From NCBI GenBank assembly GCA_023131895.1, contig JAGLYZ010000001.1, forward strand, positions 8,957 through 72,956: a DNA stretch of 64,000 bases. The letters run 5' to 3'. Both the position numbers and the translations under genes were made by a program. The notes under the pieces were generated by a model. The model was not told the DNA's origin. It saw only the letters and a list, made by a program, of their open reading frames with translations, and made no database searches. This document shows positions 1 to 23,197 of this stretch, one piece after another. Source of the DNA: Candidatus Parcubacteria bacterium (GTDB lineage: Bacteria; Patescibacteriota; Minisyncoccia; Minisyncoccales; JAGMDC01). How positions within the stretch are numbered: position 1 is the stretch's first letter; each line of letters opens with the position of its first letter.

Positions 1-1
1 A

Positions 2-1048
2 ATTGTTCATGGAGCTTATTGCAGTAAAGAAAAAGATGTTCTTACTGATTCAAGGCCGTCAACTGTTTCAGACCATGAAATTTATTTTGTAACTCCTACT
101 GGAGTTGGGACTTCCACTGATACGATTATAATTTCCTTTGACGGATCAAATGATGGTTTTGATCTTAGTAGCATTGTTCTTGCTGACATTGATTTAGCTG
201 TTGACGATGATAATAATTGTGATGGCGGTTGGACTCAAAAAACATTAGCAGATACTGCCACATCAAGTGTCTGGGGAGTGTCTGTGTCTACCAGTACAGA
301 TCAGATTACTTTTACTCCTCCTACAGATGCGAGCGCAGGGGAAATTGCTGCTGATAGATGTGTTCAAATTGAGATTGGAACAAACGCTGGCGGCAGTAAT
401 CAGATTACTAATCCTGCTGCCGGAGGCTGTGAAGGCGCTAGCAGTGTTTGCGATATTGATATATCAGGAGCTTTTGGAGACACTGGCAAGACCAAAGTAG
501 CGATTATTGCCGGGATAGCAGTTTCAGCAACTGTTTCTGAAACATTAACTTTTACTGCCACAGATAGCGCTATTGGTTTTGGTACATTAGATGCTAGTGA
601 AGTGCGTTATGCCACAGCGAATGAACAGGGCGCTACTAGTACTCCTGCAGCCGGCCAGCCAACACAGCTTTCTTTAACAACAAATGCTTCTGGCGGAGCG
701 ACCATTACTATAAAAGATGTGGGAAACGGAACAGATGCAGCTGGGTTATACAAATCAACAGCTACGGTAAAATTAATTCCTGCAGTAGCTTCCAGCCTTG
801 TAAGCACTAGTACAGAAGAGTATGGCGTGTATGGCAAGGATGCTTCCAGTTTGACCATTCATGAGGGATTTGATGATGATACAGTCTCTGATGTGGCAAT
901 CTCCAGGACCCCTCAAACTTTTGCCACTGCTGCAGCAGCTGTAAGCGGTGGTACGGTTGATGTTTCTATGAAAGCGTGCATTGCAGGCACTACTCCAGCT
1001 GGTTCCTATGCTGATACTGTTATTGTAATTGCTACGCCGACTTATTAA
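2..1048 (+). CDS. Secreted Thr/Ala/Gly-rich surface protein with a WxL-like C-terminal beta domain; 5' end cut by the window edge
   Basis: Frame 2 is open from base 2 to TAA at 1046-1048. The product is low-complexity and T/S/A/G-rich. The C-terminal layout (...VSETLTFTATDSAIGFGTL ... TITIKDVGNG ... AGSYADTVIVIATPTY*) resembles WxL-type surface domains but lacks the Trp residues. It lies next to a DUF916-like gene. Confidence 0.55.
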   Translation: MVHGAYCSKEKDVLTDSRPSTVSDHEIYFVTPTGVGTSTDTIIISFDGSNDGFDLSSIVLADIDLAVDDDNNCDGGWTQKTLADTATSSVWGVSVSTSTDQITFTPPTDASAGEIAADRCVQIEIGTNAGGSNQITNPAAGGCEGASSVCDIDISGAFGDTGKTKVAIIAGIAVSATVSETLTFTATDSAIGFGTLDASEVRYATANEQGATSTPAAGQPTQLSLTTNASGGATITIKDVGNGTDAAGLYKSTATVKLIPAVASSLVSTSTEEYGVYGKDASSLTIHEGFDDDTVSDVAISRTPQTFATAAAAVSGGTVDVSMKACIAGTTPAGSYADTVIVIATPTY

Positions 1049-1168
1049 GGTAAATAAACTTAAGGCGAAAAATCCCTTTGGGTGCGATTTTTAGTTGGCA
1101 TCAGATTTGGACTTTATGCTAATAAAGATTGATTTTTTGCCTAAGTTTTGGTATAAGAGCTTTATAAA

Positions 1169-2107
1169 ATGAAAAGTGTAAAAGCAATACTTTTAATAGG
1201 TGTTTTAATATTTGTAGGAATAACAGGATTAGTTTTAGCTTTTCAGGTTAATGCTCAAGCAACAGGTATTACTATTTCTCCTTTAACTTTTGAATTGACA
1301 GCAAATCCAGGAGATGTGATTTCAAACAAGCTTAAGGTTTATAATCCAACTGACAGCACTATTGGCATAAAAATGGAAGTAGAGGATTTCAGGCCGGTTG
1401 GTGAAACAGGTCAGGTAATAGTCAGCCCTGAAGAGGAAGTAACTTATTCTTTAAAAAGATGGGTGGAAACAATACCTCCTGAATTTACTTTAAAACCAAG
1501 AGAACAGAAGTTTGTTGATTTTACTATAAATGTTCCGGAAAATGCTGAGCCAGGAGGACATTATGGTTCAATTTTAGCTTGTGTAACTGGAGCTATAGGC
1601 GAAGAAGTTACTGGAGTAGCATTGACTCAAAAAGTAGGAGGTTTGATTTTGTTAATGGTTTCAGGAGAATTAAAAGAAGAGTTAATTGTTAAAGAATTTT
1701 CATCTCCTTCTTTTTTAGAATACGGACCAGTGCTGTTCACTATTAGGTTTGAGAATAAAGGAACTATTCATGTACGGCCAAAAGGTTTTGTAACTATTAG
1801 CGACTGGCGCGGGAAAAAAGTAGCTGATGTTGCTTTTCCGCAAAACAATGTTATTCCAGGAGCAATAAGAAAAATTGAGGCTTCTTGGGATAAAAAATGG
1901 TTAGTAGGCCGCTATACTGCCACATTAGTAGGCAGTTACGGCACTGCTAATGTTCCGTTTAATCCGCCTGTCTTAACTTTCTGGGTTTTTCCTTGGAAAT
2001 TAGGTTTAGGCGCTTTGATAGCTTTATTAATAATAATGATTTTCTTTTATAAAACCAGAAAAAGGTGGAGATTGGCAATGAGAATATTAGTTAAAGGAGA
2101 ACAATAA
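1169..2107 (+). CDS. DUF916/DUF3324 (CscA)-like cell-surface protein with signal peptide and C-terminal TM anchor
   Basis: N-terminal signal (LIGVLIFVGITGLVLAFQVNAQA). Two beta-sandwich-like halves (ISPLTFELTANPGDVISNKLKVYNPTD...; FTLKPREQKFVDFTINVPENAEPGGHYGSI; FTIRFENKGTIHVRPKG). C-terminal TM (LGLGALIALLIIMIFFY) followed by KTRKRWR. Confidence 0.6.
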   Translation: MKSVKAILLIGVLIFVGITGLVLAFQVNAQATGITISPLTFELTANPGDVISNKLKVYNPTDSTIGIKMEVEDFRPVGETGQVIVSPEEEVTYSLKRWVETIPPEFTLKPREQKFVDFTINVPENAEPGGHYGSILACVTGAIGEEVTGVALTQKVGGLILLMVSGELKEELIVKEFSSPSFLEYGPVLFTIRFENKGTIHVRPKGFVTISDWRGKKVADVAFPQNNVIPGAIRKIEASWDKKWLVGRYTATLVGSYGTANVPFNPPVLTFWVFPWKLGLGALIALLIIMIFFYKTRKRWRLAMRILVKGEQ

Positions 2108-2131
2108 TTTCTGAATCAATATTAAAAATGA

Positions 2132-3085
2132 ATGTTTTTTTTAAAGAAAAAGAAAAACCAAGAAATAGAGCTTGAAAAAAGAAAAAAAGATTTTTTTTCA
2201 CGGTTTTGTTTAACATATAAAGCCGTTTTTTTATTTTCAATTACATTTTCTATTTTATTATTTGCTTTTTCATTTTGCCAAGCCCTTGATCCAATAGAGG
2301 AAGGCATAAGTATTTCTGCAGTTGTAGAAGGCGTTGCTCCTCCTCCCTCTGCTGGAGGAGGGCCTATATTGCAATCCACAGTTGTTTTTAATGGAAAAGC
2401 ATATCCTGGAGCTTTAGTCACTATTTTAAGAAATGGCTCAATAGCTTCAACTTTAACAGCTGATTCTTCTGCTGAGTTTTCAGCAACCTTAACTGGAATT
2501 CCGTCTGGCTTTAGGATTTTTTCGCTTTGGGCTGAAGATAAAGAAGGGAAAAAATCACCAACTCTAAGTTTTAGTGTTTATTTAACAAACAGAACAAGCA
2601 CTACTTTTGCTGGATTATTTTTGGCACCGACTATTAATTTGAGTTCCTTTGAGATTTCTAAAGGAGAAGTTTTGGATATATACGGTTATACTGCTCCAAA
2701 AGCTGAAGTTAATATTTTTATCAATAATGGTTCAGAAGAAATTGTTTTGAGGACTAAATCTGATACTGATGGATTCTGGCTTTATTCGCTTGATACTTCT
2801 ATAATAAAAAAAGCAGGTTATTCGGTTAGAGCAAGATCAACATCTTCTACAGGAGAGATTTCAATGTTCTCCGAGTCTTTAGATTTTGAAGTTCTACCTG
2901 AAGGAATTGCTGTTTGCTGCGGAGCTGACATAAACTGCGATAACAGAATAGATATTGTTGATTTTTCAATTATGCTTTTCTGGTGGGAGTCAAAAGAAAT
3001 TAAAGACCCCTGCGTTGACATTAATTTAGACAATGAAGTAAATCTTGTTGACTTTTCCATTATGCTTTATTACTGGACAGGGTAA
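2132..3085 (+). CDS. Secreted protein with a C-terminal type I dockerin-like duplicated Ca-binding repeat
   Basis: Hydrophobic N-terminal segment ending ...FSFCQA. The C-terminus carries two tandem segments, DINCDNRIDIVDFSIMLFWW and DINLDNEVNLVDFSIMLYYW, matching the D-x-N-x-D-x-x-(I/V)-(D/N)-x-x-D-F pattern of dockerin F-hand repeats. Confidence 0.7.
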   Translation: MFFLKKKKNQEIELEKRKKDFFSRFCLTYKAVFLFSITFSILLFAFSFCQALDPIEEGISISAVVEGVAPPPSAGGGPILQSTVVFNGKAYPGALVTILRNGSIASTLTADSSAEFSATLTGIPSGFRIFSLWAEDKEGKKSPTLSFSVYLTNRTSTTFAGLFLAPTINLSSFEISKGEVLDIYGYTAPKAEVNIFINNGSEEIVLRTKSDTDGFWLYSLDTSIIKKAGYSVRARSTSSTGEISMFSESLDFEVLPEGIAVCCGADINCDNRIDIVDFSIMLFWWESKEIKDPCVDINLDNEVNLVDFSIMLYYWTG

Positions 3086-3110
3086 TTTAATTAAAAGTTT
3101 AAAGTTAAAA

Positions 3111-4283
3111 ATGCAAAGTTATAATTCAAAATTAAAAATTTCTTATTTTCTGATTTTAGTTTTTAGCTTTTCATTTTTAGTTTTTAATTATTGCCAAGCG
3201 GCGGTGTTTTATTTAATGCCTCAAGCGCAAACTGTTTATCAGGGCGATTCTTTTATTGTTGAAATAAGATTAGACACTGAAGAAGAAGAAATAAATACTG
3301 TTAAAGCAAATTTGATATTTCCTTCTGATTTGTTAGAAGTTGTTGATATTAATAAAGGAGGTTCTATATTGGCTCTTTGGCCTGAAGAGCCGGATGTTTC
3401 TAATAATGAAATATATTTTCTTGGAGGCGTTCCGGGCGGATTTAAAGGAGATGGAATAATTGCCAGAGTTATTTTTACAGGAAAAGAAATTAGCGGGGCA
3501 GAAGTTAGCTTTAAAGAAGCTTGCCATGTTTTATTAAATGACGGGCATGGCACTTCAGCTGATTTGAGTTTGCTTGGAGCGAGTTATGACATTATTGAAA
3601 AAACACAAGCTTGGCCGCTTATTTTTTCAACTACTCATCCAGACCAAAACAAATGGTCAAAATCAAGCACATTTCATATTCATTGGGATTTAGTTGAAGA
3701 AGCCGAATATAGTTATCTTTTAAGCCAGGACTCTTTGGCTGAACCTGATAATATTCTTGATAAGCCGGAAGGAGAATTGGTTTGGATGGGCGATATGAAG
3801 TATGTTGGTTTGGAAGACGGAATTTATTATTTTACTTTAAAGCAGAAAGACCCTGACCAGAGTTGGTCAGAGAAAATCACTTACAGGGCAATGATTGATT
3901 CTGCTGCTCCTGAAGAATTTAGTTTAAAGATTGCTCAAGACCAGAGTCTATTTGAAGAAAAATACTTTTTAAATTTTTTTACCACTGACAAGGGTTCAGG
4001 CATAGATTATTACAAAATAAAAGAAGGCAAAAGAGATTGGAAAACAATAAGCAGCCCTTATTTATTAGAAGACCAAGGACTACAGAGCATTATAAAAGTA
4101 GCAGCAGTAGATAAGGCTGGAAATGAAAGAATAGCAGAATATCTACCTTCAGAGACAAAGAAACTATTCCCTTGGCAGATAATTATTTTGATTCTGGCTG
4201 TGATTGGAGTAATTTGGTTGATTATTAAAAGAATTAGCGCGAAACCACTCGAAACAAAGACGCGAAACCACACAAAAGTTTAG
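3111..4283 (+). CDS. Membrane-anchored cohesin-like domain surface protein, paralogue 1
   Basis: I prefer the ATG at 3111 (MQSYNSKLKISYFLILVFSFSFLVFNYCQA signal) to the upstream 3045 start, which overlaps the previous gene. Cohesin-like module (VYQGDSFIVEIRLDTEEEEINTVKANLIFPSDLLEVVDI...GGVPGG...ARVIFTGKE...VLLNDGHGT), THPDQNKWS module, DGIYYF module, SGIDYY Ig-like module and C-terminal TM. Confidence 0.7.
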   Translation: MQSYNSKLKISYFLILVFSFSFLVFNYCQAAVFYLMPQAQTVYQGDSFIVEIRLDTEEEEINTVKANLIFPSDLLEVVDINKGGSILALWPEEPDVSNNEIYFLGGVPGGFKGDGIIARVIFTGKEISGAEVSFKEACHVLLNDGHGTSADLSLLGASYDIIEKTQAWPLIFSTTHPDQNKWSKSSTFHIHWDLVEEAEYSYLLSQDSLAEPDNILDKPEGELVWMGDMKYVGLEDGIYYFTLKQKDPDQSWSEKITYRAMIDSAAPEEFSLKIAQDQSLFEEKYFLNFFTTDKGSGIDYYKIKEGKRDWKTISSPYLLEDQGLQSIIKVAAVDKAGNERIAEYLPSETKKLFPWQIIILILAVIGVIWLIIKRISAKPLETKTRNHTKV

Positions 4284-4317
4284 CGTAGTTTAGCGTAAAG
4301 TTTAGCGTAGTTTAGCG
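4238..4317. repeat. Paralogue-junction element 1: cgcgaaac-type x3, then agtttagcg x4 (mutually complementary arms)
   Basis: cgcgaaac at 4238 and 4261, tcgaaac at 4249 (within ctcgaaac at 4248). gtttagcg at 4278, 4288, 4300 and 4310 (spacing 10/12/10). It spans the stop codon of paralogue 1. Confidence 0.8.
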
Positions 4318-4323
4318 ATTTTA

Positions 4324-5529
4324 ATGGAGAGATTGTTTTCTATATTATTTATCTTAATACTTTTTTTTATTATTCCATTCTCGGTTTCTGGGGCTTCGGC
4401 TTCGCTTTATCTTTCACCTTCTTCGGGAAGTTTTTTGGTAGGAAGCACTTTTACTGTTTCTATATTTTTAGATACTGAAGGAAATGACATAAACGTGGTT
4501 TGGGCAGAGTTAAAGTTTAATCCGGAAATTTTACAGATTACTTCGCCAACTGCTGGCAATTCTTTTATTTCTGAATGGATATTGCCTCCGAATTATTCAA
4601 ACAAAAAAGGGATAATAAGTTTCAGGGGAGGCATACCAGAAGGAATTAGCACTTCAGCAGGACTGGTTTCTTCTGTCGCTTTTCGGGCAAAGGCCTCTGG
4701 CACTGCAAAAATTGAGTTTACAAAAGAATCCAGAGTTCTTTTAAACGATGGAAAAGGCACGAATGTTCTTACTAATAAAATTAACGGAGAATATCAGGTT
4801 TTAATTCCAATGCCAGAGGGTCCAGTTGTTTTTTCTCCCACTCATCCGAGTCCAAATGTTTGGTATTCTGATTCAAGCCCGGCTTTTAGTTGGGAAAAAG
4901 AGCAAGGAATAAGTGATTTTTCCTGGAGTTTTGATGAAAATCCAAAGAGCAGGCCAGACACTAAAGGAGAAGGAATCCAAACAATGGCATCTTTTTCCGA
5001 TATAGAGGATGGAATTTGGTATTTTCATTTAAGGCAAAATAAAAAAGGAATTTGGGGCAAGACCTCTTCTGCGGCAGTGAGAATTGACACTAATCCTCCA
5101 AAGGAATTCTTTCCGAGAGTTGAAACATATTCACGTTTAGTTGGATATCAGACAATGGTTTATTTTGAGACAATTGATAATTTTTCAGGCATTGACCATT
5201 ACGAAGCAAGTATTATTGATTTAAGCTCTTCAGAATCTTTTCGTTCTTTTTTTTCTGAAGAAATAAGCCCTTATCGGGTTCCTTTTAAAAAAGCAGGCAA
5301 GTATAATGTCATTATAAAAGCAATAGACAGGGCTGGAAATATTAGAGAAAGCGAGGCCCGGTTTCGGATAATGACTCCTTTGATATCCCATATTGAAGGC
5401 AATGGATTGCAAATTAAAGGAGTTTTTTTACCTTGGTGGTTGATGGGATTTTTATTATCTTTTATAATTTTAGGACCAGTATTAATTGTTTGGTGGTTCT
5501 GGAAAAGATACCAGAAGTACACTCAATGA
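4324..5529 (+). CDS. Membrane-anchored cohesin-like domain surface protein, paralogue 2
   Basis: Same architecture as paralogue 1: signal peptide, ASLYLSPSSGSFLVGSTFTVSIFLDTEGNDINVVWAELKFNPEILQI..., THPSPNVWY, DGIWYFHL, SGIDHY and a C-terminal TM. Confidence 0.75.
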   Translation: MERLFSILFILILFFIIPFSVSGASASLYLSPSSGSFLVGSTFTVSIFLDTEGNDINVVWAELKFNPEILQITSPTAGNSFISEWILPPNYSNKKGIISFRGGIPEGISTSAGLVSSVAFRAKASGTAKIEFTKESRVLLNDGKGTNVLTNKINGEYQVLIPMPEGPVVFSPTHPSPNVWYSDSSPAFSWEKEQGISDFSWSFDENPKSRPDTKGEGIQTMASFSDIEDGIWYFHLRQNKKGIWGKTSSAAVRIDTNPPKEFFPRVETYSRLVGYQTMVYFETIDNFSGIDHYEASIIDLSSSESFRSFFSEEISPYRVPFKKAGKYNVIIKAIDRAGNIRESEARFRIMTPLISHIEGNGLQIKGVFLPWWLMGFLLSFIILGPVLIVWWFWKRYQKYTQ

Positions 5530-5547
5530 ATTTAATCCATCAATAGA

Positions 5548-5646
5548 CACTAATGACTAAACCACTAAAAAACACTAATATTAGACCAATAGGCACTAAA
5601 TATAAATTATTAGTGTTGATTAGTTTTATATTAGTGTGTATTAGCG
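5548..5646. repeat. Paralogue-junction element 2: cactaa-type x5, then ttagtg-type x4 (complementary arms)
   Basis: cactaa at 5548, 5563, 5573 and 5594, plus actaaa at 5556. ttagtg at 5610 and 5631, ttagtt at 5620, ttagcg at 5641. It spans the start codon and signal-peptide codons of paralogue 3. Confidence 0.8.
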
Positions 5647-6899
5647 GGCTGCCTTCTGTAGCAGAAGGAGCTGGCGCTTCTTTGTATTTTTCGCCAGGAA
5701 GCGGCACTTTTTTTATTGGAAGCACTTTTGATATTTCTATTTTTATCAACACAGGAGGCAATAATGTTAATGCTGTAAAAGTTGATTTAAAATTTGATCC
5801 AAAAAAACTGCAAATAGCCAGTCCAACAGCTGGAAAGTCATTTATTGCTGTTTGGGTTGCCCAGCCCGCTTATTCCAATATTGAAGGCACGGCTTCTTTC
5901 CAGGGAGGAGCGCCTTCTCCAGGAATTAATACTTCTTCTGGCTTAGTATCTACTATTACTTTCAGAGCTATTAGTCCGGGTGAAACCAGTATTTATTTTG
6001 CAGATTCTTCCAAGGTTCTTTTAGACGACGGTAAAGGAACCGACATTTTAACATCTTTAGGAAAAGGAGCTTATACATTAACTATTCCTCCGCCAGAAGG
6101 CCCTAAGATATTTTCCCATACACATCCTGACCAAAATAAATGGTATAAAAATAATACCCCGAATTTTAGCTGGGAAAAAGCAGAAATGGTAAATGCTTTT
6201 AGCTATAATATGAGCCGCAATTATTATGATGAACCAGATAATGTTTCTGAGGGGGAGCATAGTTCAATTTCTTTTGCTGATTTAGAAGATGGAATATGGT
6301 ATTTTTCTATAAAAGCAAGGCAAGGCGAACTTTGGGGCGGGATTAGCAGATATATTGTTCAGATTGATAAAAGCGCGCCAGCAAGTTTTGAACTCGTGTT
6401 TGATCCCGTGCTGCGTTCCCCGGTTTCTGTTTCTAAAGAACCAATAATTAGATTTATTACCACTGATGCGCTTTCAGGGCTTGAGCATTATACGTTAAAA
6501 CATATTGATTTGACTGGCAAAGAGAAAAAAGAAGGTTTTTTTGTGGAAGTGAGCAGTCCGTATAGAATGCCTGAGCTTGCCTTAGGAGAACATGAAATAA
6601 TAATTAGGGCTTTTGACGCAGCTGGCAATTATCAAGACAGTGCGGAGAAAATTGAAGTTATCCCGACTGAACAATTATTTTATGTTTCAAAAAATGGAAT
6701 AAATATTTTCAGCATTTTTATTTCTTGGTGGAAACTGATTTTAATCCTTATTATTATTCTAATTCTGATTTTGATATGTACATTTTTGTGGTGGCGCAAA
6801 AATAAGCGTTTAGAGCGAACAAAAAAATATCTCATAGGGGTTAAGGGAGAAGCAGAGAAAAATAGAGAGGAAATTAAAAGAAAATTAAATGGCATATGA
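5553..6899 (+). CDS. Membrane-anchored cohesin-like domain surface protein, paralogue 3
   Basis: ASLYFSPGSGTFFIGSTFDISIFINTGGNNVNAVKVDLKFDPKKLQI..., THPDQNKWY, DGIWYFSI, SGLEHY, a TM segment and a short basic/acidic tail. Its stop overlaps the next start (ATGA at 6896-6899). Confidence 0.75.
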   Translation: MTKPLKNTNIRPIGTKYKLLVLISFILVCISGLPSVAEGAGASLYFSPGSGTFFIGSTFDISIFINTGGNNVNAVKVDLKFDPKKLQIASPTAGKSFIAVWVAQPAYSNIEGTASFQGGAPSPGINTSSGLVSTITFRAISPGETSIYFADSSKVLLDDGKGTDILTSLGKGAYTLTIPPPEGPKIFSHTHPDQNKWYKNNTPNFSWEKAEMVNAFSYNMSRNYYDEPDNVSEGEHSSISFADLEDGIWYFSIKARQGELWGGISRYIVQIDKSAPASFELVFDPVLRSPVSVSKEPIIRFITTDALSGLEHYTLKHIDLTGKEKKEGFFVEVSSPYRMPELALGEHEIIIRAFDAAGNYQDSAEKIEVIPTEQLFYVSKNGINIFSIFISWWKLILILIIILILILICTFLWWRKNKRLERTKKYLIGVKGEAEKNREEIKRKLNGI

Positions 6900-8635
6900 T
6901 CACTAAACACATACAAAACCCATACACTAAACAGACACGAAACCTTTTACTTGGTGTCGGTTTAGTGTTTTGTTTAGTGTGGGTTTCTTGTTTTCTGCCT
7001 AGCGAAGCGAAGGCAGAAAGTGCTTCGCTTTTTCTTACACCTGCAAGCCAAAGCCTTGAAACAGGAGAGAGATTTTCAATGGAGGTAAATGTAGACACTG
7101 GCTCTATTCCTATTAATGCCGGACAGGCAATTATTCATTTCCCATATGATACATTAGAGATTGTCAGTATTTCCAAAGAAAATTCTATATTTTCTTTTTG
7201 GCCGGAAGAGCCGGTTTTTTCTAATTCAACAGGTGAAATTTCGTTTGTTGGCGGATTGCCTACGCCTGGCTTTACAGGAATAGGAAATTTAATTACTGTT
7301 GAATTTAAAGCAAGACAATTAGGTGTTTCAAATCTTACTTTCGGTGATGCCAGGGTTTTAGCTGACGACGGCAAAGGAACCAATGTTTTAGTTTATCTTA
7401 AAAGCGCCAAATATTTTATTCTTGAAAAAATAACTCTTTCTGGAAAAGAACCAGAAGCAGCTTTGCCTCAAATTTTTTCTCTAACTCATCCTCAAGAAGA
7501 CGAATGGTATAATAATAATTCCCCTTCTTTCAAATGGAATTTAACCCCTGGTATTACTGATGTTAGTTTTGATTTAAACCAAAAACCAGAAGCCATGCCT
7601 GATACAGTTTCTGAAGGCATAAAGGAATTTAAAAAGTATGAAAAAGTTTTAGATGGTATTTGGTATTTTCATTTAAGTTCAAAAGATGAAACAGGATGGT
7701 TGGAGCCTGTGCATTATAAAATTCAGATTGATACTACGCCGCCTAACCTTTTTGAATTGGTGATTGATAATGCCGGAGATCCTACTAATCCAAAGCCCAG
7801 TATTTATTTTGAAACCAGTGATGCTGCTTCAGGAATAAAGAATTATAAGCTTAAAATTGGACAAGGAGATTTTTCTAATTTAATGCTTGCGCAAATAAAT
7901 CCTGTTTTTTTATCGCTTCAAGATCCAGGCAGCCGTGAAATTATAGTAAGAGCTGTAGATAAAGCTGGAAATTCTGTTCAAGCTGAATCTTTTATTAATA
8001 TAGAATCTATTGAATCTCCTGAAATTAATGTCTGGCCCAAGAAATATATTGCAGGAGAAGAAGTGTTCTATATTGAAGGCAAATCCTTGCCTAATGCAGA
8101 AATTACAATTTTTTTAAAAAAAGACAATAAAGAAATTAGAAAATGGCAAACCATTAGCAACAATCAAGGAGAATGGTCTTTTTCAACAAGAGAATTCTTA
8201 AAATCCGGTAATTATTCCTTATCTGCTCTGGCTCAAGACAACAGGGGAGCAATAAGTGATTTTTCTGATGCAAAAGAAATAGAAATATTTTTCAGCGGGC
8301 TTTTTTTTGGACCATTAATGGTTTCTTTTAAAACATTGGTTCTATCCTTATTTTTAGTTTTGTGTTTAGGAATTATTATATTTGCTTATTTCTTTTATAA
8401 AAATCGTTTGGCTAAAAGAGTATTAATAAAAGAAACATGTGAAGCAAGAGAAATTCTTAAAGAAAATTTTGATTCCTTAGGAAAAGAAATAGAAAAGCGG
8501 ATTGAGATGGCTGATAATCAGCCTGGATTTAGTGAAGCGGAAAAAGATGTTTGTGAAAATATTAAAAAAGCGCTCAAAACCACTAAAAAGAAAATAGAAA
8601 AAGAAATTAAAGACATTGAAAGAGAGCTAAAATAA
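6896..8635 (+). CDS. Membrane-anchored cohesin-like domain surface protein, paralogue 4, with an extra beta domain and a cytoplasmic coiled-coil tail
   Basis: ASLFLTPASQSLETGERFSMEVNVDTGSIPINAGQAIIHFPYDTLEI..., THPQEDEWY, DGIWYFHL and SGIKNY. There is an additional ~100-aa domain before the TM. After the TM comes a ~75-aa K/E-rich tail (KEIEKRIEM...KKKIEKEIKDIERELK). Confidence 0.75.
   Translation: MITKHIQNPYTKQTRNLLLGVGLVFCLVWVSCFLPSEAKAESASLFLTPASQSLETGERFSMEVNVDTGSIPINAGQAIIHFPYDTLEIVSISKENSIFSFWPEEPVFSNSTGEISFVGGLPTPGFTGIGNLITVEFKARQLGVSNLTFGDARVLADDGKGTNVLVYLKSAKYFILEKITLSGKEPEAALPQIFSLTHPQEDEWYNNNSPSFKWNLTPGITDVSFDLNQKPEAMPDTVSEGIKEFKKYEKVLDGIWYFHLSSKDETGWLEPVHYKIQIDTTPPNLFELVIDNAGDPTNPKPSIYFETSDAASGIKNYKLKIGQGDFSNLMLAQINPVFLSLQDPGSREIIVRAVDKAGNSVQAESFINIESIESPEINVWPKKYIAGEEVFYIEGKSLPNAEITIFLKKDNKEIRKWQTISNNQGEWSFSTREFLKSGNYSLSALAQDNRGAISDFSDAKEIEIFFSGLFFGPLMVSFKTLVLSLFLVLCLGIIIFAYFFYKNRLAKRVLIKETCEAREILKENFDSLGKEIEKRIEMADNQPGFSEAEKDVCENIKKALKTTKKKIEKEIKDIERELK
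6901..6985. repeat. Paralogue-junction element 3: cactaaac x2 plus cgaaacc, then gtttagtg x2 (complementary arms)
   Basis: cactaaacacatacaaaacccatacactaaacagacacgaaacc ... ggtgtcggtttagtgttttgtttagtgtgggttt. It lies in the first ~30 codons of paralogue 4. Confidence 0.8.
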
Positions 8636-8663
8636 AAACAGAATCGGTAATAAATTAAGTTTA

Positions 8664-8678
8664 TGTTAGAATAAAAAT
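8664..8678 (+). promoter_or_regulatory. Extended -10 (TGtTAGAAT) followed by exactly 6 nt and the ATG of the CDF gene; leaderless-type start
   Basis: tg 8664-8665, tagaat 8667-8672, spacer aaaaat, ATG at 8679. No SD. Confidence 0.5.
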
Positions 8679-9911
8679 ATGAATAAAGAATCTGTCTCAA
8701 TTTTTAGCATTTTAGCCAATATCTTTTTAGGGATTAGCAAATTAGTGATTGGTTTGATGATTAACAGCGCTGCTTTGGTTGCTGATGGTATCCATTCAGC
8801 TACTGATTTTGTATCTTCTTTAGGTGTTTTTATTGGAATTAAAATTGCTAAAAAACCAGCTGATAAAGAGCATCCTTATGGCCATTATGCTGCAGAAACC
8901 TTAAGCGGGTTAGGCGTGGTTCTTCTTTTAATTCTTGCAGGCATATGGATTATGTATGATGGAGTAGGAAGTATTCTGAATAAAAATATTATTCAATTAA
9001 GTTCAATAGGAATTATAGTCGTTGTTTTTTCCATATTTTTAAATGAGGCAATGGCTCGTTTGAAATTAAGATACGGCCGCAAGGAGAATTCTCTGGCTTT
9101 AATTGCTGATGCCGAGCATTCGCGCGCTGACGCTATTTCTTCAGTTGGTGTTTTAATTGGCTTATTGATTGCTTCTTTGGGTTCAGGTTATTTTTTATAT
9201 GCAGATGGATTGATTGCTATTTTTATTGGTATGTATATTTTAAAAGAAAGCTATAAATTAGGCAGGGAAGTAGTTGATAATTTATTAGGAGTAAGGGACG
9301 AGAAAACTGAGGAAATGATTAAAGAATATTGTAAGCAAAAAAATATTTCTTTAATTGGTTTAAAAACGCGGAAAATTGGGCCAGTGATTTCTGCAGAAAT
9401 CACTATTAAATTAGACGCTCGTTTAAAAGTAGAGGAAGCAGAAGGGGTCTCTAAAAAATTACAAAATGATTTATTGGCCAAAATCAAAAATTTAAAATAT
9501 GTGGTTATTCAGGTTGAATCGCATAAAACAAGGCAGGGATTTATTAGGCAAAGATGGGGTAGAAGGATTGATTTTCGCGAGCGATTTAAACCATTAGGTC
9601 CGGAAAAGAAAGGTTATAGAATAGTCATTCCTTTTAAAGATGGAAAATTCTATTCAGATTTTGGAGCGCCGGAATATTTAGTGGTAGATCGCGAAGGCGG
9701 TCGCGCTAGCCGCATTTTAGAAAAACAAATCGTGGAAAATCCATTTTTCGCAGAAGGTATTGGCGGCGGTATGCGGTTTATTAAATCGCTTAATCCAGAT
9801 GAAGTTATTACTCAAAAAATAGGTCCAGGCGCTACAGAAAGATTAAAAGAATTAGGAATTAAGCTGACCATCATTAAAGACGAAAACGAAATAAAAGAAT
9901 TTTTACCCTGA
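8679..9911 (+). CDS. Cation diffusion facilitator (CDF) transporter fused to a C-terminal NifX/NifB-like (dinitrogenase FeMo-cofactor family) domain
   Basis: CDF hallmarks: HSATDFVSSLGVFIG, KPADKEHPYGHYAAE, HSRADAISSVG and a cytoplasmic ZT-dimer-like region. A ~115-aa extension (YRIVIPFKDGKFYSDFGAPEYLVVD ... GGGMRFIKSL ... VITQKIGPGATERLKELGIKLTI) resembles the PF02579-type fold. Confidence 0.7.
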   Translation: MNKESVSIFSILANIFLGISKLVIGLMINSAALVADGIHSATDFVSSLGVFIGIKIAKKPADKEHPYGHYAAETLSGLGVVLLLILAGIWIMYDGVGSILNKNIIQLSSIGIIVVVFSIFLNEAMARLKLRYGRKENSLALIADAEHSRADAISSVGVLIGLLIASLGSGYFLYADGLIAIFIGMYILKESYKLGREVVDNLLGVRDEKTEEMIKEYCKQKNISLIGLKTRKIGPVISAEITIKLDARLKVEEAEGVSKKLQNDLLAKIKNLKYVVIQVESHKTRQGFIRQRWGRRIDFRERFKPLGPEKKGYRIVIPFKDGKFYSDFGAPEYLVVDREGGRASRILEKQIVENPFFAEGIGGGMRFIKSLNPDEVITQKIGPGATERLKELGIKLTIIKDENEIKEFLP

Positions 9912-10004: not shown

Positions 10005-10649
10005 ATGAGAAAAACAGAAATTATTGCCTTAGGGATTATTTTAATATCATTTTTGATTGGCATTTATTTTTATAACAGGATGCCAGATATGATGGCTTCG
10101 CATTGGAATGCAAGAGGCGAAGTTAACGATTATATGTCCAAATTCTGGGCTTTGTTTTTAATGCCTTTAATGTCTTTGGGATTGTTTTTACTTTTTCTTG
10201 TGGTTCCTAAAATTGATCCATTAAAACAAAATATTGAAAAATTCAGAAAATACTTTGATACATTTATTGTCTTGATGCTCGGCTTTCTGTTTTATATTTA
10301 TCTTTTAACTATTTTTTGGAATCTTGGCATTAGATTCAGTATGATACAACTGATGATTCCAGCTATGGCTGCTTTATTTTATTACTGCGGAATTTTAGTA
10401 GAAAATGCCAAAAGAAACTGGTTTATTGGCATTAAAACTCCCTGGACATTGAGTAATGAAAATGTCTGGAATAAAACTCACAAACTGGGCGGTAAACTGT
10501 TTAAAAGTGCTGGCATAATTATTCTTTTAGGGATTGTCTTGGAAAGTTATGCTCCATATTTTGTTTTGGTTCCAATACTTTTTGTCAGTATTTATTTAGT
10601 TGTCTATTCCTATCTTGAATATCAGAAAGAAATAAAGATAAAGAAATGA
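10005..10649 (+). CDS. SdpI/DUF1648 family membrane protein
   Basis: The N-terminus FYNRMPDMMASHWNARGEVNDY is DUF1648-like. NWFIGIKTPWTLSNENVWNKTHKLGGKLF matches the SdpI signature. About 6 TM segments. A 4-nt ATGA overlap joins it to the next gene. Confidence 0.75.
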   Translation: MRKTEIIALGIILISFLIGIYFYNRMPDMMASHWNARGEVNDYMSKFWALFLMPLMSLGLFLLFLVVPKIDPLKQNIEKFRKYFDTFIVLMLGFLFYIYLLTIFWNLGIRFSMIQLMIPAMAALFYYCGILVENAKRNWFIGIKTPWTLSNENVWNKTHKLGGKLFKSAGIIILLGIVLESYAPYFVLVPILFVSIYLVVYSYLEYQKEIKIKK

Positions 10650-12178
10650 GCATTAAAATATTAAAAAAAACAATATCTGTTTGTCCTGAATGTTTTAGAG
10701 CAGGGAAAATTAAGAAAATAGACGCTCAAATTATTGAGGAGGAAGGAAAGGTGTGGATGAGAAAAGAGTGTTCCATACATGGTGTTTTTAAGTCAATATA
10801 CTTCAGTTCTCCAGAGCTTTATCGCAAATGGATGAAGTATCAAGCAGATGGCAGAGGGGTTGAAAATGTAGAGATTAAAAGCCTGCCTGATTCGCATTTT
10901 CTTTATCCAAAGCATTTTTCCCAAACAGTTCTGACAAATTTAATGGTTACCAACAGATGCAACCTAAGGTGCAGCTACTGCTTTATGAATGCCGGAGCCG
11001 CCGGTTATATTTATGAGCCGTCTTTAGAGATGCTGAAAAAGATGATGCAGGCAGTAAGATTAGAAAAACCTGTGCCCTCAAAGGCGCTGCAGATCACCGG
11101 TGGTGAGCCAACAATTAGAGATGATTTAATAAAGATTATCAAAATAGCTAAAAATATGGGCTTTGTTCATGTCCAGTTGAACACCAATGGCATACGGCTT
11201 TCTGAAGAGCCGGAATATTGTCAAAAGATTAAAAAGGCAGGAGTAAATACTATTTATATGAGCTTTGACGGAGTTTCAAAGCAAACCAACCCTTGGATAG
11301 AAGAAAATAAAAGAGCAATAGAGAATCTAAGAAAAGCAGGCATAGGCGTTGTTTTGGTTCCCACTGTTATCGCTGATTCCAATCTTCAAGAAGCAGGAGA
11401 GATTGTTAAATATGCCATAGAAAATATTGATATAGTAAGAGGGGTTAATTTCCAGCCCATTTCTTTTTGCGGAAGGGCAGGATTTGTGCCTGATGAGGTT
11501 AGAAAAAGAAAAAGAGTTGATTATGTAAAACTTTTTGAGGTCTTGGAGGATTCTTTTGGAGGACAAATAACAAGAGATGATTTTTATCCTGTACCCTTCG
11601 TTTATCCAATATCAAAATTAGTAGAAAGGCTAAGGGGTGAGCCCCAAGTTGAATTTACTGCTCACCCAGGCTGCGGCGGAGCAACTTATGTATTTGTTAA
11701 GAATGGGAATTTAGTGCCAATAACTAGATTTATTAATGTAGAGAGGCTAAGGAAGTTCATTGAAGAGCAATTAGAAAAATCAGGACCATTTTACAGGGCA
11801 AGAGTGACTGCTCTTTTTATCAAAAATATTTCTCAATTTATTAATCAAAATAAAGTGCCAGAAGGTTTAGATATTAAAAATATTTTAATAAGCGCTATTA
11901 CCAGAGGTCAATATAAATCATTGGGTAAATTCCATCACGAAGCCCTTTTTATCGGTTCAATGTGGTTTCAGGATGTTTGGAATCTTAATCTGGAACGGTT
12001 GAAAAGATGCGTTATTCATTATTCTACCCCGGAAGGCATAGTGCCTTTTTGCGCTTATAATGGTTTGGGATATGGCGATGAGATTCGTAAGAGGCATTCT
12101 ATGTCTGTGAAAGAATGGGAGGAAAAAACCGGCAGAAAAATGGAAGACGATCTTTGGAAAAACGGCCCTGTATCATAA
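10646..12178 (+). CDS. Radical SAM enzyme, MJ0619/tetraether-lipid-synthase (Tes/GDGT-MAS)-like architecture
   Basis: CNLRCSYCF is a CxxxCxxC radical SAM motif. N-terminal Cys/His knuckle (CPECF ... ECSIHG). GGEPT motif. Additional conserved Cys residues (HPGCGG, RCVIHY, PFCAYN). At 510 aa it matches the size of the archaeal MJ0619 family. The radical SAM call is solid; the subfamily call is from memory only. Confidence 0.6.
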   Translation: MSIKILKKTISVCPECFRAGKIKKIDAQIIEEEGKVWMRKECSIHGVFKSIYFSSPELYRKWMKYQADGRGVENVEIKSLPDSHFLYPKHFSQTVLTNLMVTNRCNLRCSYCFMNAGAAGYIYEPSLEMLKKMMQAVRLEKPVPSKALQITGGEPTIRDDLIKIIKIAKNMGFVHVQLNTNGIRLSEEPEYCQKIKKAGVNTIYMSFDGVSKQTNPWIEENKRAIENLRKAGIGVVLVPTVIADSNLQEAGEIVKYAIENIDIVRGVNFQPISFCGRAGFVPDEVRKRKRVDYVKLFEVLEDSFGGQITRDDFYPVPFVYPISKLVERLRGEPQVEFTAHPGCGGATYVFVKNGNLVPITRFINVERLRKFIEEQLEKSGPFYRARVTALFIKNISQFINQNKVPEGLDIKNILISAITRGQYKSLGKFHHEALFIGSMWFQDVWNLNLERLKRCVIHYSTPEGIVPFCAYNGLGYGDEIRKRHSMSVKEWEEKTGRKMEDDLWKNGPVS

Positions 12179-12185
12179 AATCTCT

Positions 12186-12194
12186 TGTGGATAA
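12186..12194 (-). promoter_or_regulatory. Perfect DnaA-box 9-mer (TTATCCACA on the minus strand) upstream of nrdD
   Basis: tgtggataa read directly at 12186-12194 in the intergenic region. Confidence 0.45.
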
Positions 12195-12206
12195 CCTCGG
12201 ATTTTC

Positions 12207-12240
12207 AACGGCGGAGGCAAAATTTGACGCCGTTTTTTTA
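12207..12240 (+). terminator. Rho-independent terminator after the radical SAM gene
   Basis: aacggcg ... cgccgtt 7-bp stem with a 14-nt loop, followed by tttttt. Confidence 0.55.
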
Positions 12241-12263
12241 TCGGAGTAAAATGGAATAATATC

Positions 12264-12275
12264 TATAAACCTCTT
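12264..12275 (+). promoter_or_regulatory. -10-like TATAAA, N6, then the ATG of nrdD; leaderless-type start
   Basis: tataaa 12264-12269, spacer cctctt, ATG at 12276. Confidence 0.4.
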
Positions 12276-14381
12276 ATGAAAAATAAAATTACTAAAATTA
12301 AAAAAAGAGACGGTAGAATAGTTGATTTTGACCAAGATAAAATTACAAAAGCGATTTATAAAGCTCTTACTTCCAGCGGCCAGGGCGATGGGAAGAAATC
12401 TAAGAGAATTTCCAATAGAATTGTTCAGATTTTGAACAGAAGATTTAAAAAAGATGAAGTTCCCACCGTAGAACATATTCAAGACATTGTCGAAGAAGTT
12501 TTAATATTAGAAAATTTAGTAGAAACAGCCAAGGCCTATATTTTATATCGTGAACAAAGAAGAAGAATTAGAGAAGCAATTACAGTAAGCGAGGAGGCAG
12601 TTAATCGAGTTGACCAGTATTTGGAAAAGCTGGACTGGGAGGTTCAGGAAAATGCTAATATGGCTTTTTCCTTGCAGGGTTTGAATCATTACGGCGTCAC
12701 TTATATCATAAAAAAATACTGGCTTAATAAAATTTATCCCAAGACGATAAGGGAAGTTGATGAATCAGGCGATCTGCATCTTCATGATTTGGATTCCTTA
12801 GCATGTTACTGCATGGGTTGGGATTTATATGACCTTTTATTAAAGGGATTTGGCGGCGTTTCAGGAAAGGTAGAAACAAAACCAGCAAAACATTTTAGAG
12901 CAATTTTAGGCCAGGCAGTGAATTTTTTATATACAGTCCAGGGCGAATGCGCGGGAGCGATCGCTTTTTCAAATTTTGATACTCTTTTAGCGCCTTTTAT
13001 TCGATATGACAATTTGAACTATCAACAGGTGAAACAATCGCTTCAGGAATTTTTATTTAATATGGCTGTGCCAACACGGGTCGGTTTCCAATGTCCTTTT
13101 AGTAATGTCACCTTAGACCTTAAGCCCTCTTCGGTTTTTGCTAAACAGCCAGTTATCATTGGCGGCAAGCCGCAAAAAGAAACATATGGCGAGTTTGCGG
13201 AAGAAATGAAAGTTTTTAATAGAGCTTTTTATGAAATAATGCTGGAAGGAGATAAATCAGGAAGACCCTTTCATTTCCCTATTCCAACTATAAACATTAC
13301 TAAAGATTTTCCCTGGGATGAACCAGCTTTTGATGGAATTTTTGAGGCCTCAGCAAAATACGGTACCAATTATTTTGCCAACTATATTAACTCGGAGATG
13401 GAGCCATCTGATGTACGTTCAATGTGTTGCAGGCTTAGGTTAAACCTGACAGATCTTTACAACCGTGGTGGAGGCGGGTTGTTCGGTTCAGGAACATTAA
13501 CCGGAAGTATTGGCGTGGTAACGGTTAATCTTCCAAGGATTGGTTATCTTTCAAAAACCAAGAAAGAATTCTTTGAACAACTTGGAAAAATGATGGATTT
13601 AGCAAGAGAAAGCTTAGAAATAAAAAGAAAAACTATTGAGGATTTTATTGAAAAAGGTTTGTATCCTTATTCAAAATTTTATTTGTCAGGAATAAAAAAA
13701 GCGCGCAATGCATATTTTGCCAATCATTTTTCAACCATAGGTTTAATAGGAACGAATGAAGCAATTTTAAATTTCTTAGGTGAAGATATTGGTTCCCGTA
13801 GAGGCAAAAAATTCGCCTTGGAAATTTTAGATTTTATGAGAGAAAAACTAGTTAAATATCAAAAAGAAACTGGCAATATTTATAACTTAGAACAAACACC
13901 GGCAGAAAGCACAAGTTATAGATTGGCTTTAAAAGATAGAGAGAAATATCCAGATATAATTACTGCTGGAACCAAGGAAAATCCCTACTACACCAATTCT
14001 ACCCAGCTTCCGGTTGATTATACAAATGATGCCTTTGAGGCATTAAAACTCCAAGACGAAATTCAAGCTAAGTATACAGGAGGCAGCGTACTCCATCTCT
14101 TTTTAGGTGAAAAAATTTCTGATATTCAAACCGTAAAAAGTTTAATTAAAAAAGTTTTTGAGAAGTTTCACCTTCCTTATATTACCATTACCCCAACTTT
14201 TTCTATTTGTCCGGTTCACGGTTATTTAAGCGGAGAACATTTTGAGTGCCCAAAATGTCTTGTTAAGCAGCCATGCGAAGTTTACTCCAGAGTCGTGGGA
14301 TATTACCGCCCCGTGACACAATACAATACTGGAAAACAGCAGGAGTTCAAGGAGAGAAAAGAATTTAAGATAAAGACATAA
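12276..14381 (+). CDS. nrdD: Anaerobic ribonucleoside-triphosphate reductase (class III RNR)
   Basis: N-terminal ATP-cone (KRDGRIVDFDQDKITKAIYKAL). C-terminal Zn ribbon (CPVHG...CPKC) and glycyl-radical motif (SRVVGYYRPV). 701 aa. Confidence 0.92.
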   Translation: MKNKITKIKKRDGRIVDFDQDKITKAIYKALTSSGQGDGKKSKRISNRIVQILNRRFKKDEVPTVEHIQDIVEEVLILENLVETAKAYILYREQRRRIREAITVSEEAVNRVDQYLEKLDWEVQENANMAFSLQGLNHYGVTYIIKKYWLNKIYPKTIREVDESGDLHLHDLDSLACYCMGWDLYDLLLKGFGGVSGKVETKPAKHFRAILGQAVNFLYTVQGECAGAIAFSNFDTLLAPFIRYDNLNYQQVKQSLQEFLFNMAVPTRVGFQCPFSNVTLDLKPSSVFAKQPVIIGGKPQKETYGEFAEEMKVFNRAFYEIMLEGDKSGRPFHFPIPTINITKDFPWDEPAFDGIFEASAKYGTNYFANYINSEMEPSDVRSMCCRLRLNLTDLYNRGGGGLFGSGTLTGSIGVVTVNLPRIGYLSKTKKEFFEQLGKMMDLARESLEIKRKTIEDFIEKGLYPYSKFYLSGIKKARNAYFANHFSTIGLIGTNEAILNFLGEDIGSRRGKKFALEILDFMREKLVKYQKETGNIYNLEQTPAESTSYRLALKDREKYPDIITAGTKENPYYTNSTQLPVDYTNDAFEALKLQDEIQAKYTGGSVLHLFLGEKISDIQTVKSLIKKVFEKFHLPYITITPTFSICPVHGYLSGEHFECPKCLVKQPCEVYSRVVGYYRPVTQYNTGKQQEFKERKEFKIKT

Positions 14382-15079
14382 TGCTTATTGGGGGACTGCA
14401 AAAAGTTACATTAATTGATTATCCGGGCAAGGTTGCTTGCACGGTTTTTTTAATGGGCTGTAATTTTCGCTGTCCTTTTTGTTATAGCGGTGAACTTGTT
14501 TTGCCAGAAGAAATAAAAAAACAGCCAATAATTCCAGAAAAAGTTTTTTTTGATTTTTTAAAAGAAAGAAAAGGATTATTAGAAGGAGTTGTCCTGTGCG
14601 GCGGTGAACCTACCATTTCTGAAGGTTTATTAGAATTCTGCCAGAAAATAAAAAAATTAGGATATTTGGTGAAATTAGATACTAATGGTTCAAGCCCAAA
14701 AATGATTGAGAAATTGATAAAAGAAAGATTGATAGATTATGTGGCAATGGATATTAAAGCACCGCAAAATAAATATAGTTTTTATTCAGGGAATAAATCA
14801 GATATCGAAAAGATTAAAAAAAGTGTTGATATCTTAAAGCAGAGAAGAATTGATTTTGAGTTCAGAACAACCGTGGCGCCTGGGTTGACAGAAAAGGACA
14901 TATTAAAAATTGCTGATTGGATCGGCGGTAAAAAAGTTAGTTATTTTTTTCAAGAGTTTAATTCTCAAAAGCCGATTTTAAATCCAGAGATTCTCAAACT
15001 CCCAGTTTTAAAAAAAGAAGAGATTGAGAAGGCTGTTGAAACAATGAAACCAAAATTTCAAATCTGCAAACTAAGATAA
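14381..15079 (+). CDS. nrdG: Anaerobic RNR activating protein (radical SAM)
   Basis: CNFRCPFCY motif and GGEPT motif. The start overlaps the nrdD stop (TAATG). Confidence 0.88.
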   Translation: MLIGGLQKVTLIDYPGKVACTVFLMGCNFRCPFCYSGELVLPEEIKKQPIIPEKVFFDFLKERKGLLEGVVLCGGEPTISEGLLEFCQKIKKLGYLVKLDTNGSSPKMIEKLIKERLIDYVAMDIKAPQNKYSFYSGNKSDIEKIKKSVDILKQRRIDFEFRTTVAPGLTEKDILKIADWIGGKKVSYFFQEFNSQKPILNPEILKLPVLKKEEIEKAVETMKPKFQICKLR

Positions 15080-23127: not shown

Positions 23128-23132
23128 AAATT

Positions 23133-23156: not shown

Positions 23157-23197
23157 GGGTTGATATTTGGTTTTAGTTGTTTACTATAAATAATAGA

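Follow-up and report, generated by a model that had tools for sequence, protein, structure and literature searches.

We analyzed a window of 64,000 nucleotides (nts) of DNA from Candidatus Parcubacteria bacterium (GenBank assembly GCA_023131895.1, contig JAGLYZ010000001.1, positions 8,957 to 72,956 of the forward strand), in which four consecutive cohesin-like paralogues, hereafter g1 to g4, belong to an operon for secreted proteins. Each of the three junctions between them (J1-2, J2-3 and J3-4) carries an array of short repeats followed by an array of their reverse complements. Comparison of these sequences showed J1-2 and J3-4 to be clear copies of a palindromic element of ~100 nts and J2-3 to be a diverged copy. 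The element is not specific to the cohesin paralogue family and belongs to the class of palindromic elements represented by the intervening sequences (IVSs) of rRNA genes. The explanation that we favor, with a probability of about 0.6, is that the junction arrays represent a dispersed IVS-type element that has spread by insertion, has been absorbed into reading frames and forms a transcript stem that is likely cut by RNase III. The window copies would then be IVS-type palindromes without an open reading frame (ORF), lodged in mRNA.

Repeat arrays at the cohesin-paralogue junctions

A sequence-only reading of this stretch had proposed hairpin-forming repeat arrays at all three junctions. Unit positions and a sliding scan of the 64 kb confirmed this proposal, with motif clusters detected at the three junctions only. 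The left arrays consist of CGCGAAAC, CACTAAAC or CACTAA and the right arrays of reverse-complementary units (GTTTAGCG, GTTTAGTG and TTAGTG), the common architecture being 8-nt units every 10-12 nts, with CRCKAAAC in left arms and the complementary GTTTAGYG in right arms. GTTTAGYG was observed nine times in the window against 2.6 expected, with eight of the nine occurrences within the junctions, and none of 100 shuffles reached nine. The periods reported by Tandem Repeats Finder were 10/22 nts at J1-2, 10 nts at J2-3 and 11-12 nts at J3-4, and the 22-nt unit of J1-2 is present twice with 100% identity.

The J1-2 copy (4230-4325, + strand), which contains no ORF, is supported by folding, by a match to the covariance model R1 described below, and by alignment to copies in rRNA and between the S17 and L14 genes. 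Its left arm (4238-4268) has CGCGAAAC at 4238 and 4261 and CTCGAAAC at 4248, and its right arm (4278-4317), which is noncoding, has GTTTAGCG at 4278, 4288, 4300 and 4310. The diverged J2-3 variant (5542-5655, + strand) was recognized by arm complementarity, folding and R1. Its left arm (5548-5599) has exact CACTAA units at 5548, 5563, 5573 and 5594, and its right arm (5610-5646) has TTAGTG at 5610 and 5631, TTAGTT at 5620 and TTAGCG at 5641. The J3-4 copy (6893-6998, + strand), identified by its R1 match, its folding and its conservation in a close relative, has a left arm at 6901-6944 (CACTAAAC at 6901 and 6925, CACGAAAC at 6936) and a right arm at 6951-6991 (GTTTAGTG at 6960 and 6972, plus GGGTTTCTTG). 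All of the units listed in the sequence-only reading are therefore present at their positions, except that its fifth CACTAA at J2-3 is a GACTAA variant at 5555, which leaves four exact copies.

One element family in rRNA, ribosomal-protein and surface-protein genes

Seven copies from four kinds of context were aligned as one element of ~106 nts, whose right arm is near-invariant (GTTTAGYGTC-AGTTTAGTG-TTTT-GTTTAGYGTC-AGTTTAGYG). RNAalifold folded the seven copies into one consensus hairpin with 27 pairs; at five of these, compensatory A-U/G-C changes occur, with G.U intermediates, at the R/Y position of CRC...GYG. R1 was built from this alignment, with J1-2 and J3-4 in the training set and J2-3 and the copies of locus L166 outside it (L numbers denote loci other than the window). 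In the window, R1 matched the junctions only. J3-4 scored 114 bits and J1-2 80.9 bits (E 4.5e-16), both as training sequences, and J2-3 scored 28.2 bits at 5554-5655 (E 0.005, R1 E-values being rough). The model also matched the starts of dockerin-like, WxL-like and cohesin genes at other loci.

When metagenomes were scanned for three GTTTAGYG units, 120 stretches were obtained from organisms with a G+C content of 19-72%, mostly unrelated tandem repeats. Matching left-arm units were found in L099, L116, L167, L195 and L202, and L166 was added through R1. Two of these loci, L195 and L202, are further cohesin junctions with the element. In L116, the array CGCGAAAC...GTTTAGTG/GTTTAGCG is an insertion of ~126 nts in the terminal loop of a hairpin at positions 573-600 of the bacterial large-subunit rRNA model, and it aligns with the J1-2 and J3-4 copies of the window. 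From its flanking sequence, we take this hairpin to be helix 25, which is a classical site of IVSs. The 23S rRNA gene of L166 holds four copies (R1 42-75 bits), of which one is inverted. In L099 and L167, the element is located between the genes for S17 (PF00366; rpsQ) and L14 (PF00238; rplN). The S17 ORF of L099 runs through the left arm and thereby gains a C-terminal tail of 30 amino acids (aa) with its stop at AAAGTTTAG; g1 of the window ends in the same manner (...HTKV*, with TAG in the first right-arm unit), the KV* stop being common to both.

In the window, a search against Rfam yielded no rRNA or other RNA family, and the copies do not interrupt an rRNA gene, their sites being junctions of protein-coding genes. 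The sequence-only reading had argued that the nucleotides, not the peptide, are conserved, and the occurrence of the ~106-nt element in 23S rRNA, between S17 and L14 and in several reading contexts at cohesin junctions strongly supports it.

As a separate observation, the 23S rRNA gene of L166 is interrupted by ORFs that, judged by their sequences, look like LAGLIDADG homing endonucleases. At least three such ORFs are present in this locus (1-9823), at 3004-3504, 4946-5545 and 5885-6553, together with further insertions of ~135 nts beside the four element copies and a 5S rRNA gene at 9706-9823.

Element arms as reading frames

The element was shown to have been absorbed into reading frames, as the C-terminal tail of g1, the n-regions of g3 and g4, and signal-peptide cores; the reading contexts are those that had been described for the N- and C-termini concerned. 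The last 14 codons of g1 (390 aa, 3111-4283, + strand), which encode AKPLETKTRNHTKV*, are the J1-2 left arm, and the stop codon TAG lies inside the first right-arm unit, AAAGTTTAG. The next gene, g2 (401 aa, 4324-5529, + strand), follows the J1-2 element and has an ordinary, short signal peptide. The start of g3 (448 aa, 5553-6899, + strand; ATG at 5553), MTKPLKNTNIRP..., has its n-region encoded by the J2-3 left arm and its hydrophobic core LLVLISFILVCIS by the right arm. Similarly, the n-region of g4 (579 aa, 6896-8635, + strand), which starts with MITKHIQNPYTKQTRN..., is encoded by the J3-4 left arm, and the right arm encodes GVGLVFCLVWV. The periods of these coding arrays are divisible by three (21 nts at J2-3 and 12 nts at J3-4).

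The A/C-rich arm is stop-free and encodes the hydrophilic residues K, T, N, H, Q, R and P; the T/G-rich arm yields L, V, F, C and S or, where it is noncoding, provides the TAG of the upstream ORF. Because of this composition, one and the same element is a C-terminal tail at J1-2 but a signal peptide at J2-3 and J3-4, and right arms outlast left arms that have been lost.

A further set of arrays surrounds the g1 start, at the junction of g1 with the preceding dockerin-like gene. These AT-rich heptamer arrays (3089-3186, + strand, by Tandem Repeats Finder) are the only window arrays with a period of 7, and comprise 7.6 copies of AATTAAA at 3089-3140, upstream of and over the ATG, followed by 4.7 copies of TTTTAGT at 3154-3186, which encode the g1 signal-peptide core. 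They were not matched by R1; their z score against arm-preserving shuffles was -3.5 on the + strand. The same site in L082 has an intact element carrying a GxxExxY gene. It is possible that the g1-start arrays are a decayed copy of the junction element.

Loop genes and turnover of the arrays in related genomes

The same sites in other genomes show the same architecture with entirely different units: seven TACGAAA on the left and four TTTCGTA on the right in L019, GAGACAAG and four CTTGTTG in L005, ACACAGA and TCTGTGT between g1 and g2 of L049, and GGATATAGAATTTAGG and CCTAAATCC in L060. The left array of these relatives either is noncoding or contributes to a neighboring gene, as the C-terminal tail of the one before it or the n-region of the one after it, and the reverse-complementary right array usually encodes a signal-peptide core. 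Such arrays are sporadic among the relatives. Four 7-nt units lie within the signal-peptide coding region in L005, L004, L025, L070 and L075.

In L001, L025, L031, L075, L047, L017 and L004, a gene of ~120 aa is situated exactly between the left array and its complement, either directly upstream of the first paralogue or fused to it in frame. It encodes a 23S_rRNA_IVP four-helix-bundle protein (PF05635, E 1e-26 to 1e-42; TIGR02436). In L082, L023, L078, L015, L013, L025 and L019, the loop gene encodes a GxxExxY protein (TIGR04256; PF13366, PD-(D/E)XK). No IVP or GxxExxY homologue was found in any frame of the window. Since the arrays of relatives enclose a loop gene, the window copies are ORF-less, miniature forms.

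The closest relative with this operon examined is L082, whose g3 is 79% identical to that of the window. Its GxxExxY gene, just before g1, is bordered by CACGAAAC/CACTAAAC units on one side and four GTTTAGTG units on the other, which are also the units of the window. The motifs had been expected to be conserved in orthologous loci, which holds in part: the J3-4 copy is kept in L082, with C-to-U changes that preserve G.U pairs, and left arms are lost in L082 g3, which retains the right arm as its signal peptide, and in L083 (g3 77% identical), which has right arms without left ones. The comparison of related genomes that the sequence-only reading had suggested also showed that the left arm is duplicated between g1 and g2 in L082 and that L083 g4 carries a J2-3-type right arm. 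The unit variant of J2-3 also follows a GxxExxY ORF in L019. Two extra intergenic hairpins of opposite polarity (TTTCGCG.../...CGCGAAT) were detected in L082 at ~3270-3370 and ~4880-4975.

Several other observations were made in these loci. L082 (1985-4852) has five paralogues instead of four, the extra one being a g2-like gene at 3407-4852. In L001 (5557-7065) and L025 (5584-7122), the 23S_rRNA_IVP ORF is fused in frame to a cohesin paralogue with no intervening stop. At 8654-10054 of L025, only the first 16 IVP codons are left, joined to the repeat-encoded hydrophobic core, which suggests that the loop ORF has been deleted. A perfect DnaA-box-like sequence, TTATCCACA, directly follows three array elements that do not adjoin cohesin genes (L025 ~1950-1965, L019 ~1860-1875 and L017 ~1860-1875). 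At the start of a dockerin-like gene in L007 (5014-5145), the left arm contains ~7 tandem heptamers (GACAAGC/GACAAGA), similar to the GACAGAT of the Coxiella IVS; CACGAAAT comes next, and then a right arm of the GTTTAGTG type.

Hairpin potential of the junctions

The complementarity of the arms exceeds the expectation from composition. The inverted arms measure 25-38 nts with loops of 9-10 nts at J2-3 and J3-4 (38-nt arms, 76% complementary, around a 10-nt loop at J2-3), and loops across the window copies are 9-14 nts long. With whole-segment shuffles, z on the + strand was -3.7 at J2-3 and at J3-4, against -0.6 at J1-2; the - strand gave -3.9 to -6.1 at the three junctions. This null is biased, because polar n-regions and hydrophobic h-regions use reverse-complementary codon sets, and we therefore applied a stricter one in which each arm was shuffled separately, so that the A/C-rich and T/G-rich compositions were kept. 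The arm-wise z scores were -4.0 on both strands at J2-3, -2.3 (+) and -3.2 (-) at J3-4, and -4.8 on the - strand of J1-2. On the + strand of J1-2, z was -1.4, with 35 of 400 shuffles as stable (not significant). Folding beyond shuffled controls, as proposed for each junction, was thus found everywhere except in the sense strand of J1-2, which is a poor sense-RNA hairpin because each unit pairs CGCGAAAC with GTTTAGCG across a G.A mismatch. Folds with DNA parameters behaved in the same way as RNA folds across the junctions.

Among 46 related hairpins, the sense fold was more stable in 26 and the antisense fold in 12 (Wilcoxon p 0.002), a bias that is weak evidence of selection at the RNA level. 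Class-level tests of gene starts were carried out on 80 related loci. In these loci, neither the local minimum free energy nor exact 7-mer inverted-repeat counts separated cohesin gene starts from those of other genes, and the best self-complementary local alignment did not set them apart, upstream terminators of other genes scoring equally. An inverted-repeat score of at least 10 was reached by 12 of 206 cohesin starts, compared with 4 of 257 and 6 of 217 in two control classes, a modest difference in the tail. RNA duplex energies (duplexfold) were too inflated for use. Intrinsic terminators (a G+C-rich stem with a T run) were rejected, as none of the 12 terminator-like sites found at 900-9100 coincides with a junction array; promoter and terminator scans gave no enriched signal at the junctions. 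An invertible segment was also rejected, the window loops being only ~10 nts long.

Comparison with known repeat systems

The IVSs of rRNA are stem-loops with inverted-repeat borders that are removed by RNase III. The Coxiella IVS has an S23p ORF in its loop and three to four tandem GACAGAT heptamers, variable in number among strains, on the 5' side of its stem, and its excision by RNase III has been demonstrated (PMC4990558). Many short non-intron insertions, some with 23S_rRNA_IVP ORFs, occur at known IVS sites in rRNA genes of the candidate phyla radiation (CPR) (PMC11270868). Our literature search on PF05635, S23p, GxxExxY and PF13366 yielded little beyond the Coxiella IVS paper (PMC4990558). 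The window element resembles the 23S rRNA IVSs of Salmonella, Leptospira, Coxiella and CPR bacteria in its complementary termini, which would give an extended stem-loop inserted in the transcript, in that a 23S_rRNA_IVP (S23p) ORF occupies the loop of some copies while others are short and ORF-less, and in that its homologues themselves sit in hairpin loops of 23S rRNA. Unlike the rRNA IVSs, the window copies are located in a protein-coding operon with translated arms, their arms are arrays of 8-nt units spaced by 10-12 nts rather than a simple inverted repeat, and GxxExxY genes also occupy the loop in relatives. Moreover, rRNA IVSs are functionally defined by RNase III excision, which for the window copies is a prediction by analogy.

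Short palindromic repeats dispersed in operon spacers, such as the repetitive extragenic palindromes and mosaic elements of Escherichia coli (REP/BIME) and the Correia elements of Neisseria, fold in mRNA and alter its stability or are cut by RNase III, and conserved imperfections of the palindrome are typical of them. They are spread genome-wide in intergenic DNA, whereas all three copies in the 64 kb of the window lie in one operon. Also unlike them, the present element occupies rRNA helices and has ORF-bearing forms with GxxExxY or IVP genes, not a known transposase.

In the STRR elements (short tandemly repeated repetitive DNA) of cyanobacteria, short tandem units and their complement likewise form intercistronic hairpins, e.g. 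between hupS and hupL; their function is unknown, and it has been suggested that they act on the stability of the transcript or in coupling translation (PMC2670836). Unlike STRR sequences, which have 7-bp units and occur in heterocystous cyanobacteria, the junctions have periods of 10/22, 10 and 11-12 nts; in the parts of the STRR literature that we consulted, we met no link to IVS ORFs or to coding of signal peptides. In the 5' untranslated region (UTR) of Haemophilus influenzae hmw, a repeat array is similarly one arm of a long imperfect hairpin upstream of a surface-adhesin gene, and this hairpin, which is cut by RNase III, is required for adhesin expression and for change in repeat number (PMC12721329). 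It differs from the window element in being an untranslated 5'-UTR structure in which at least 10 repeats on one arm face a G-rich stretch, and in representing a single locus rather than a dispersed family.

Alternative explanations

The junction hairpins may have evolved in the host as intercistronic regulators of STRR or REP type, without mobility, which set paralogue levels through stability, termination or coupling. We regard this as unlikely, although it overlaps with the functional half of our own explanation. A hairpin at every junction, the overlap of the g3 stop and g4 start (ATGA), which fits translational coupling, and the tendency of sense folds to be more stable than antisense ones are in its favor, as are the action proposed for the heptamer hairpins between hupS and hupL (PMC2670836) and the control of adhesin expression by the hmw hairpin via RNase III (PMC12721329). 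However, the same sequence in rRNA helices and a ribosomal-protein operon of other genomes is hard to account for without spread of the element. In addition, relatives have lost left arms or exchanged arrays between paralogues, no terminator-like signal is found at the junctions, and J1-2 is weak as a sense RNA.

Alternatively, the arrays could be contingency loci, in which slippage shifts the number of units and switches or modulates individual surface proteins, as in the leader repeats of Neisseria opa genes or the hmw repeats of H. influenzae. The genes do encode surface proteins, the arrays are near-perfect in tandem (above all the 22-nt unit of J1-2), the left arm is duplicated at L082 g1/g2, and a change by one of the 7-nt signal-peptide units of relatives would shift the frame; heptamer number also differs among strains in the Coxiella IVS (PMC4990558). 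The coding arrays of the window stay in frame (21 and 12 nts), however, J1-2 is noncoding, each array has just 2-4 copies, and slippage leaves the complementary arm and the rRNA copies unexplained. We consider this possibility improbable.

It is very improbable that the arrays are recombination sites for cassette shuffling or gene conversion among paralogues, comparable to integron attC or shufflon sites. Imperfect palindromes at paralogue boundaries would suit such a role, the J2-3-type right arm of L083 g4 hints at exchange between paralogues, and the conserved mismatch in each unit recalls the strand-marking bases carried by attC sites. On the other hand, no integrase, invertase or transposase was found among the window ORFs at positions 278-51859, the g1-g4 gene order is kept across many genomes, and the element is also present in rRNA and between ribosomal-protein genes, where cassettes are absent. 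The pairwise identity among g1-g4 is only 31-36%, so they are not being homogenized. Integron attC sites in particular were rejected given the conserved gene order and the lack of a tyrosine or serine recombinase domain in the same ORFs.

We attach as low a probability to arrays of binding sites for a DNA-binding protein, be they sites of a regulator, iteron-like sites or subterminal repeats bound by a transposase. Such sites would agree with 8-mers whose spacing of 10-12 nts is close to one turn of the helix and which are direct on one side but inverted on the opposite one, and with the mismatch that makes left and right units consistently different (CGAAAC vs CTAAAC). Yet other lineages have the same architecture with entirely different units, compensatory changes maintain pairing, both polarities exist (the hairpins of L082 with the T-rich arm first), and no candidate binding protein is known. 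Finally, the A/C-rich codons used in n-regions (K, N, T, H, Q) are truly complementary to the T/G-rich ones used in h-regions (L, V, F, C), and cohesin starts as a class are no more structured than other membrane-protein starts by our crude measures. A chance hairpin arising as a by-product of coding is nevertheless hardly credible, since z remains at -3 to -5 when the arms are shuffled separately, no protein is encoded by the right arm of J1-2, J2-3 left-arm units lie in different frames, and the rRNA and intergenic copies refute a pure codon-complementarity artefact.

Genomic setting

The window has a G+C content of 33%, and its sequence is found unchanged within contig DAOVNT010000001.1 (metagenome-assembled genome GCA_030630045.1), one of four contigs that carry g2. 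By gene annotation, the secreted-protein operon extends over 1169-8635 (+ strand). Before g1, it encodes a WxL-interacting-like protein and a Big_6 protein with a dockerin-like C-terminus, whose counterpart in L082 faintly matches PF00404 (Dockerin_1). Pfam Cohesin (PF00963) is matched by g2 and g3, and g4 contains a Big_13 domain. Tandem arrays of two to five such cohesin-like paralogues are common in Patescibacteria genomes.

Beyond the operon, at 10646-15079, the gene for a radical-SAM protein that carries an HMPTM zinc ribbon precedes those for an anaerobic ribonucleotide reductase (NrdD, ATP-cone) and its radical-SAM activase; a ComEC-like competence protein is encoded next, at 15079-16551. 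One ORF at 27504-28703 encodes both an N6_N4 DNA methylase domain and, at the C-terminus, an Mrr_cat restriction-endonuclease domain. Two stretches, at 23128-24007 (0.9 kb) and 28704-30081 (1.4 kb), have no ORF of at least 120 aa, Rfam match or R1 match; CACTAA occurs in the former at 23263 (+) and 23328 (-).

Proposed mechanism and significance

According to the explanation that we favor, the element would have spread by insertion, as its distribution suggests. Transcribed in the operon mRNA, it would fold as a long imperfect stem, and a cut by RNase III would be likely by analogy with rRNA IVSs. Cleavage after g1 would separate and stabilize the g1 message, and a stem just inside the g3 and g4 ORFs would lower or gate their expression. 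The element could instead be a near-neutral passenger whose right arm is now retained as a signal peptide, which may equally be compatible with the data.

Several points weigh against this explanation. Mobility is deduced from distribution, and no transposase is known for IVS-type elements. RNase III cleavage appears to be the likeliest fate of the stems on the analogy above, and the window ORFs checked (at positions 278-51859) include no gene for RNase III; nor is a benefit obvious at g3 and g4, because cleavage inside the ORFs would destroy their messages. The J2-3 variant is a family member by a weak score (28 bits, with rough E-values). Close relatives keep right arms without left arms (L082 g3, L083) and have lost the latter without losing the genes, so that at least some paralogues can do without the hairpin. 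The sense hairpin of J1-2 barely exceeds arm-shuffled controls (z -1.4), the antisense strand folding better, and the one-base mismatch of each unit (G.A or C.U, depending on the strand) is kept in either orientation to transcription, which points to a DNA-level property and not to selection for RNA pairing. The orientation-independent mismatch and the better antisense fold of J1-2 argue that part of the conservation of the element is at the DNA level.

A more far-reaching proposal, which we put forward tentatively and consider doubtful as a whole, is that IVS-type palindromes are a mobile family, whose autonomous forms have a gene for a GxxExxY PD-(D/E)XK nuclease or a 23S_rRNA_IVP four-helix-bundle protein in the loop and whose miniatures are ORF-less. 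Their targets would be loci with heavy transcription (rRNA helices, the S10/spc ribosomal-protein operon and the main surface-protein operon), the strand of a single-stranded hairpin intermediate would be marked by the conserved mismatch in each unit, and the T/G-rich arm would have been repeatedly domesticated as the hydrophobic core of signal peptides. If this is true, a selfish palindrome would be a source of secretion signals and, via unit number, of variation in surface proteins.

The IVSs of rRNA have been known since about 1990, and their origin, their mobility and the role of their small ORFs are still unexplained. The presence of the same element in rRNA, a ribosomal-protein operon and the frames of surface-protein genes indicates that it is not a peculiarity of rRNA, and the ORF-bearing and miniature forms, side by side in related genomes, offer a comparative system for studying both the movement of the element and the function of GxxExxY and IVP proteins. 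The finding warns that junction hairpins of this kind should not be taken for dedicated regulators of the paralogues, and it bears on the annotation of start codons and signal peptides in Patescibacteria. It also provides a concrete route from a palindromic repeat to protein, in which one arm yields hydrophilic tails and the other the cores of signal peptides.

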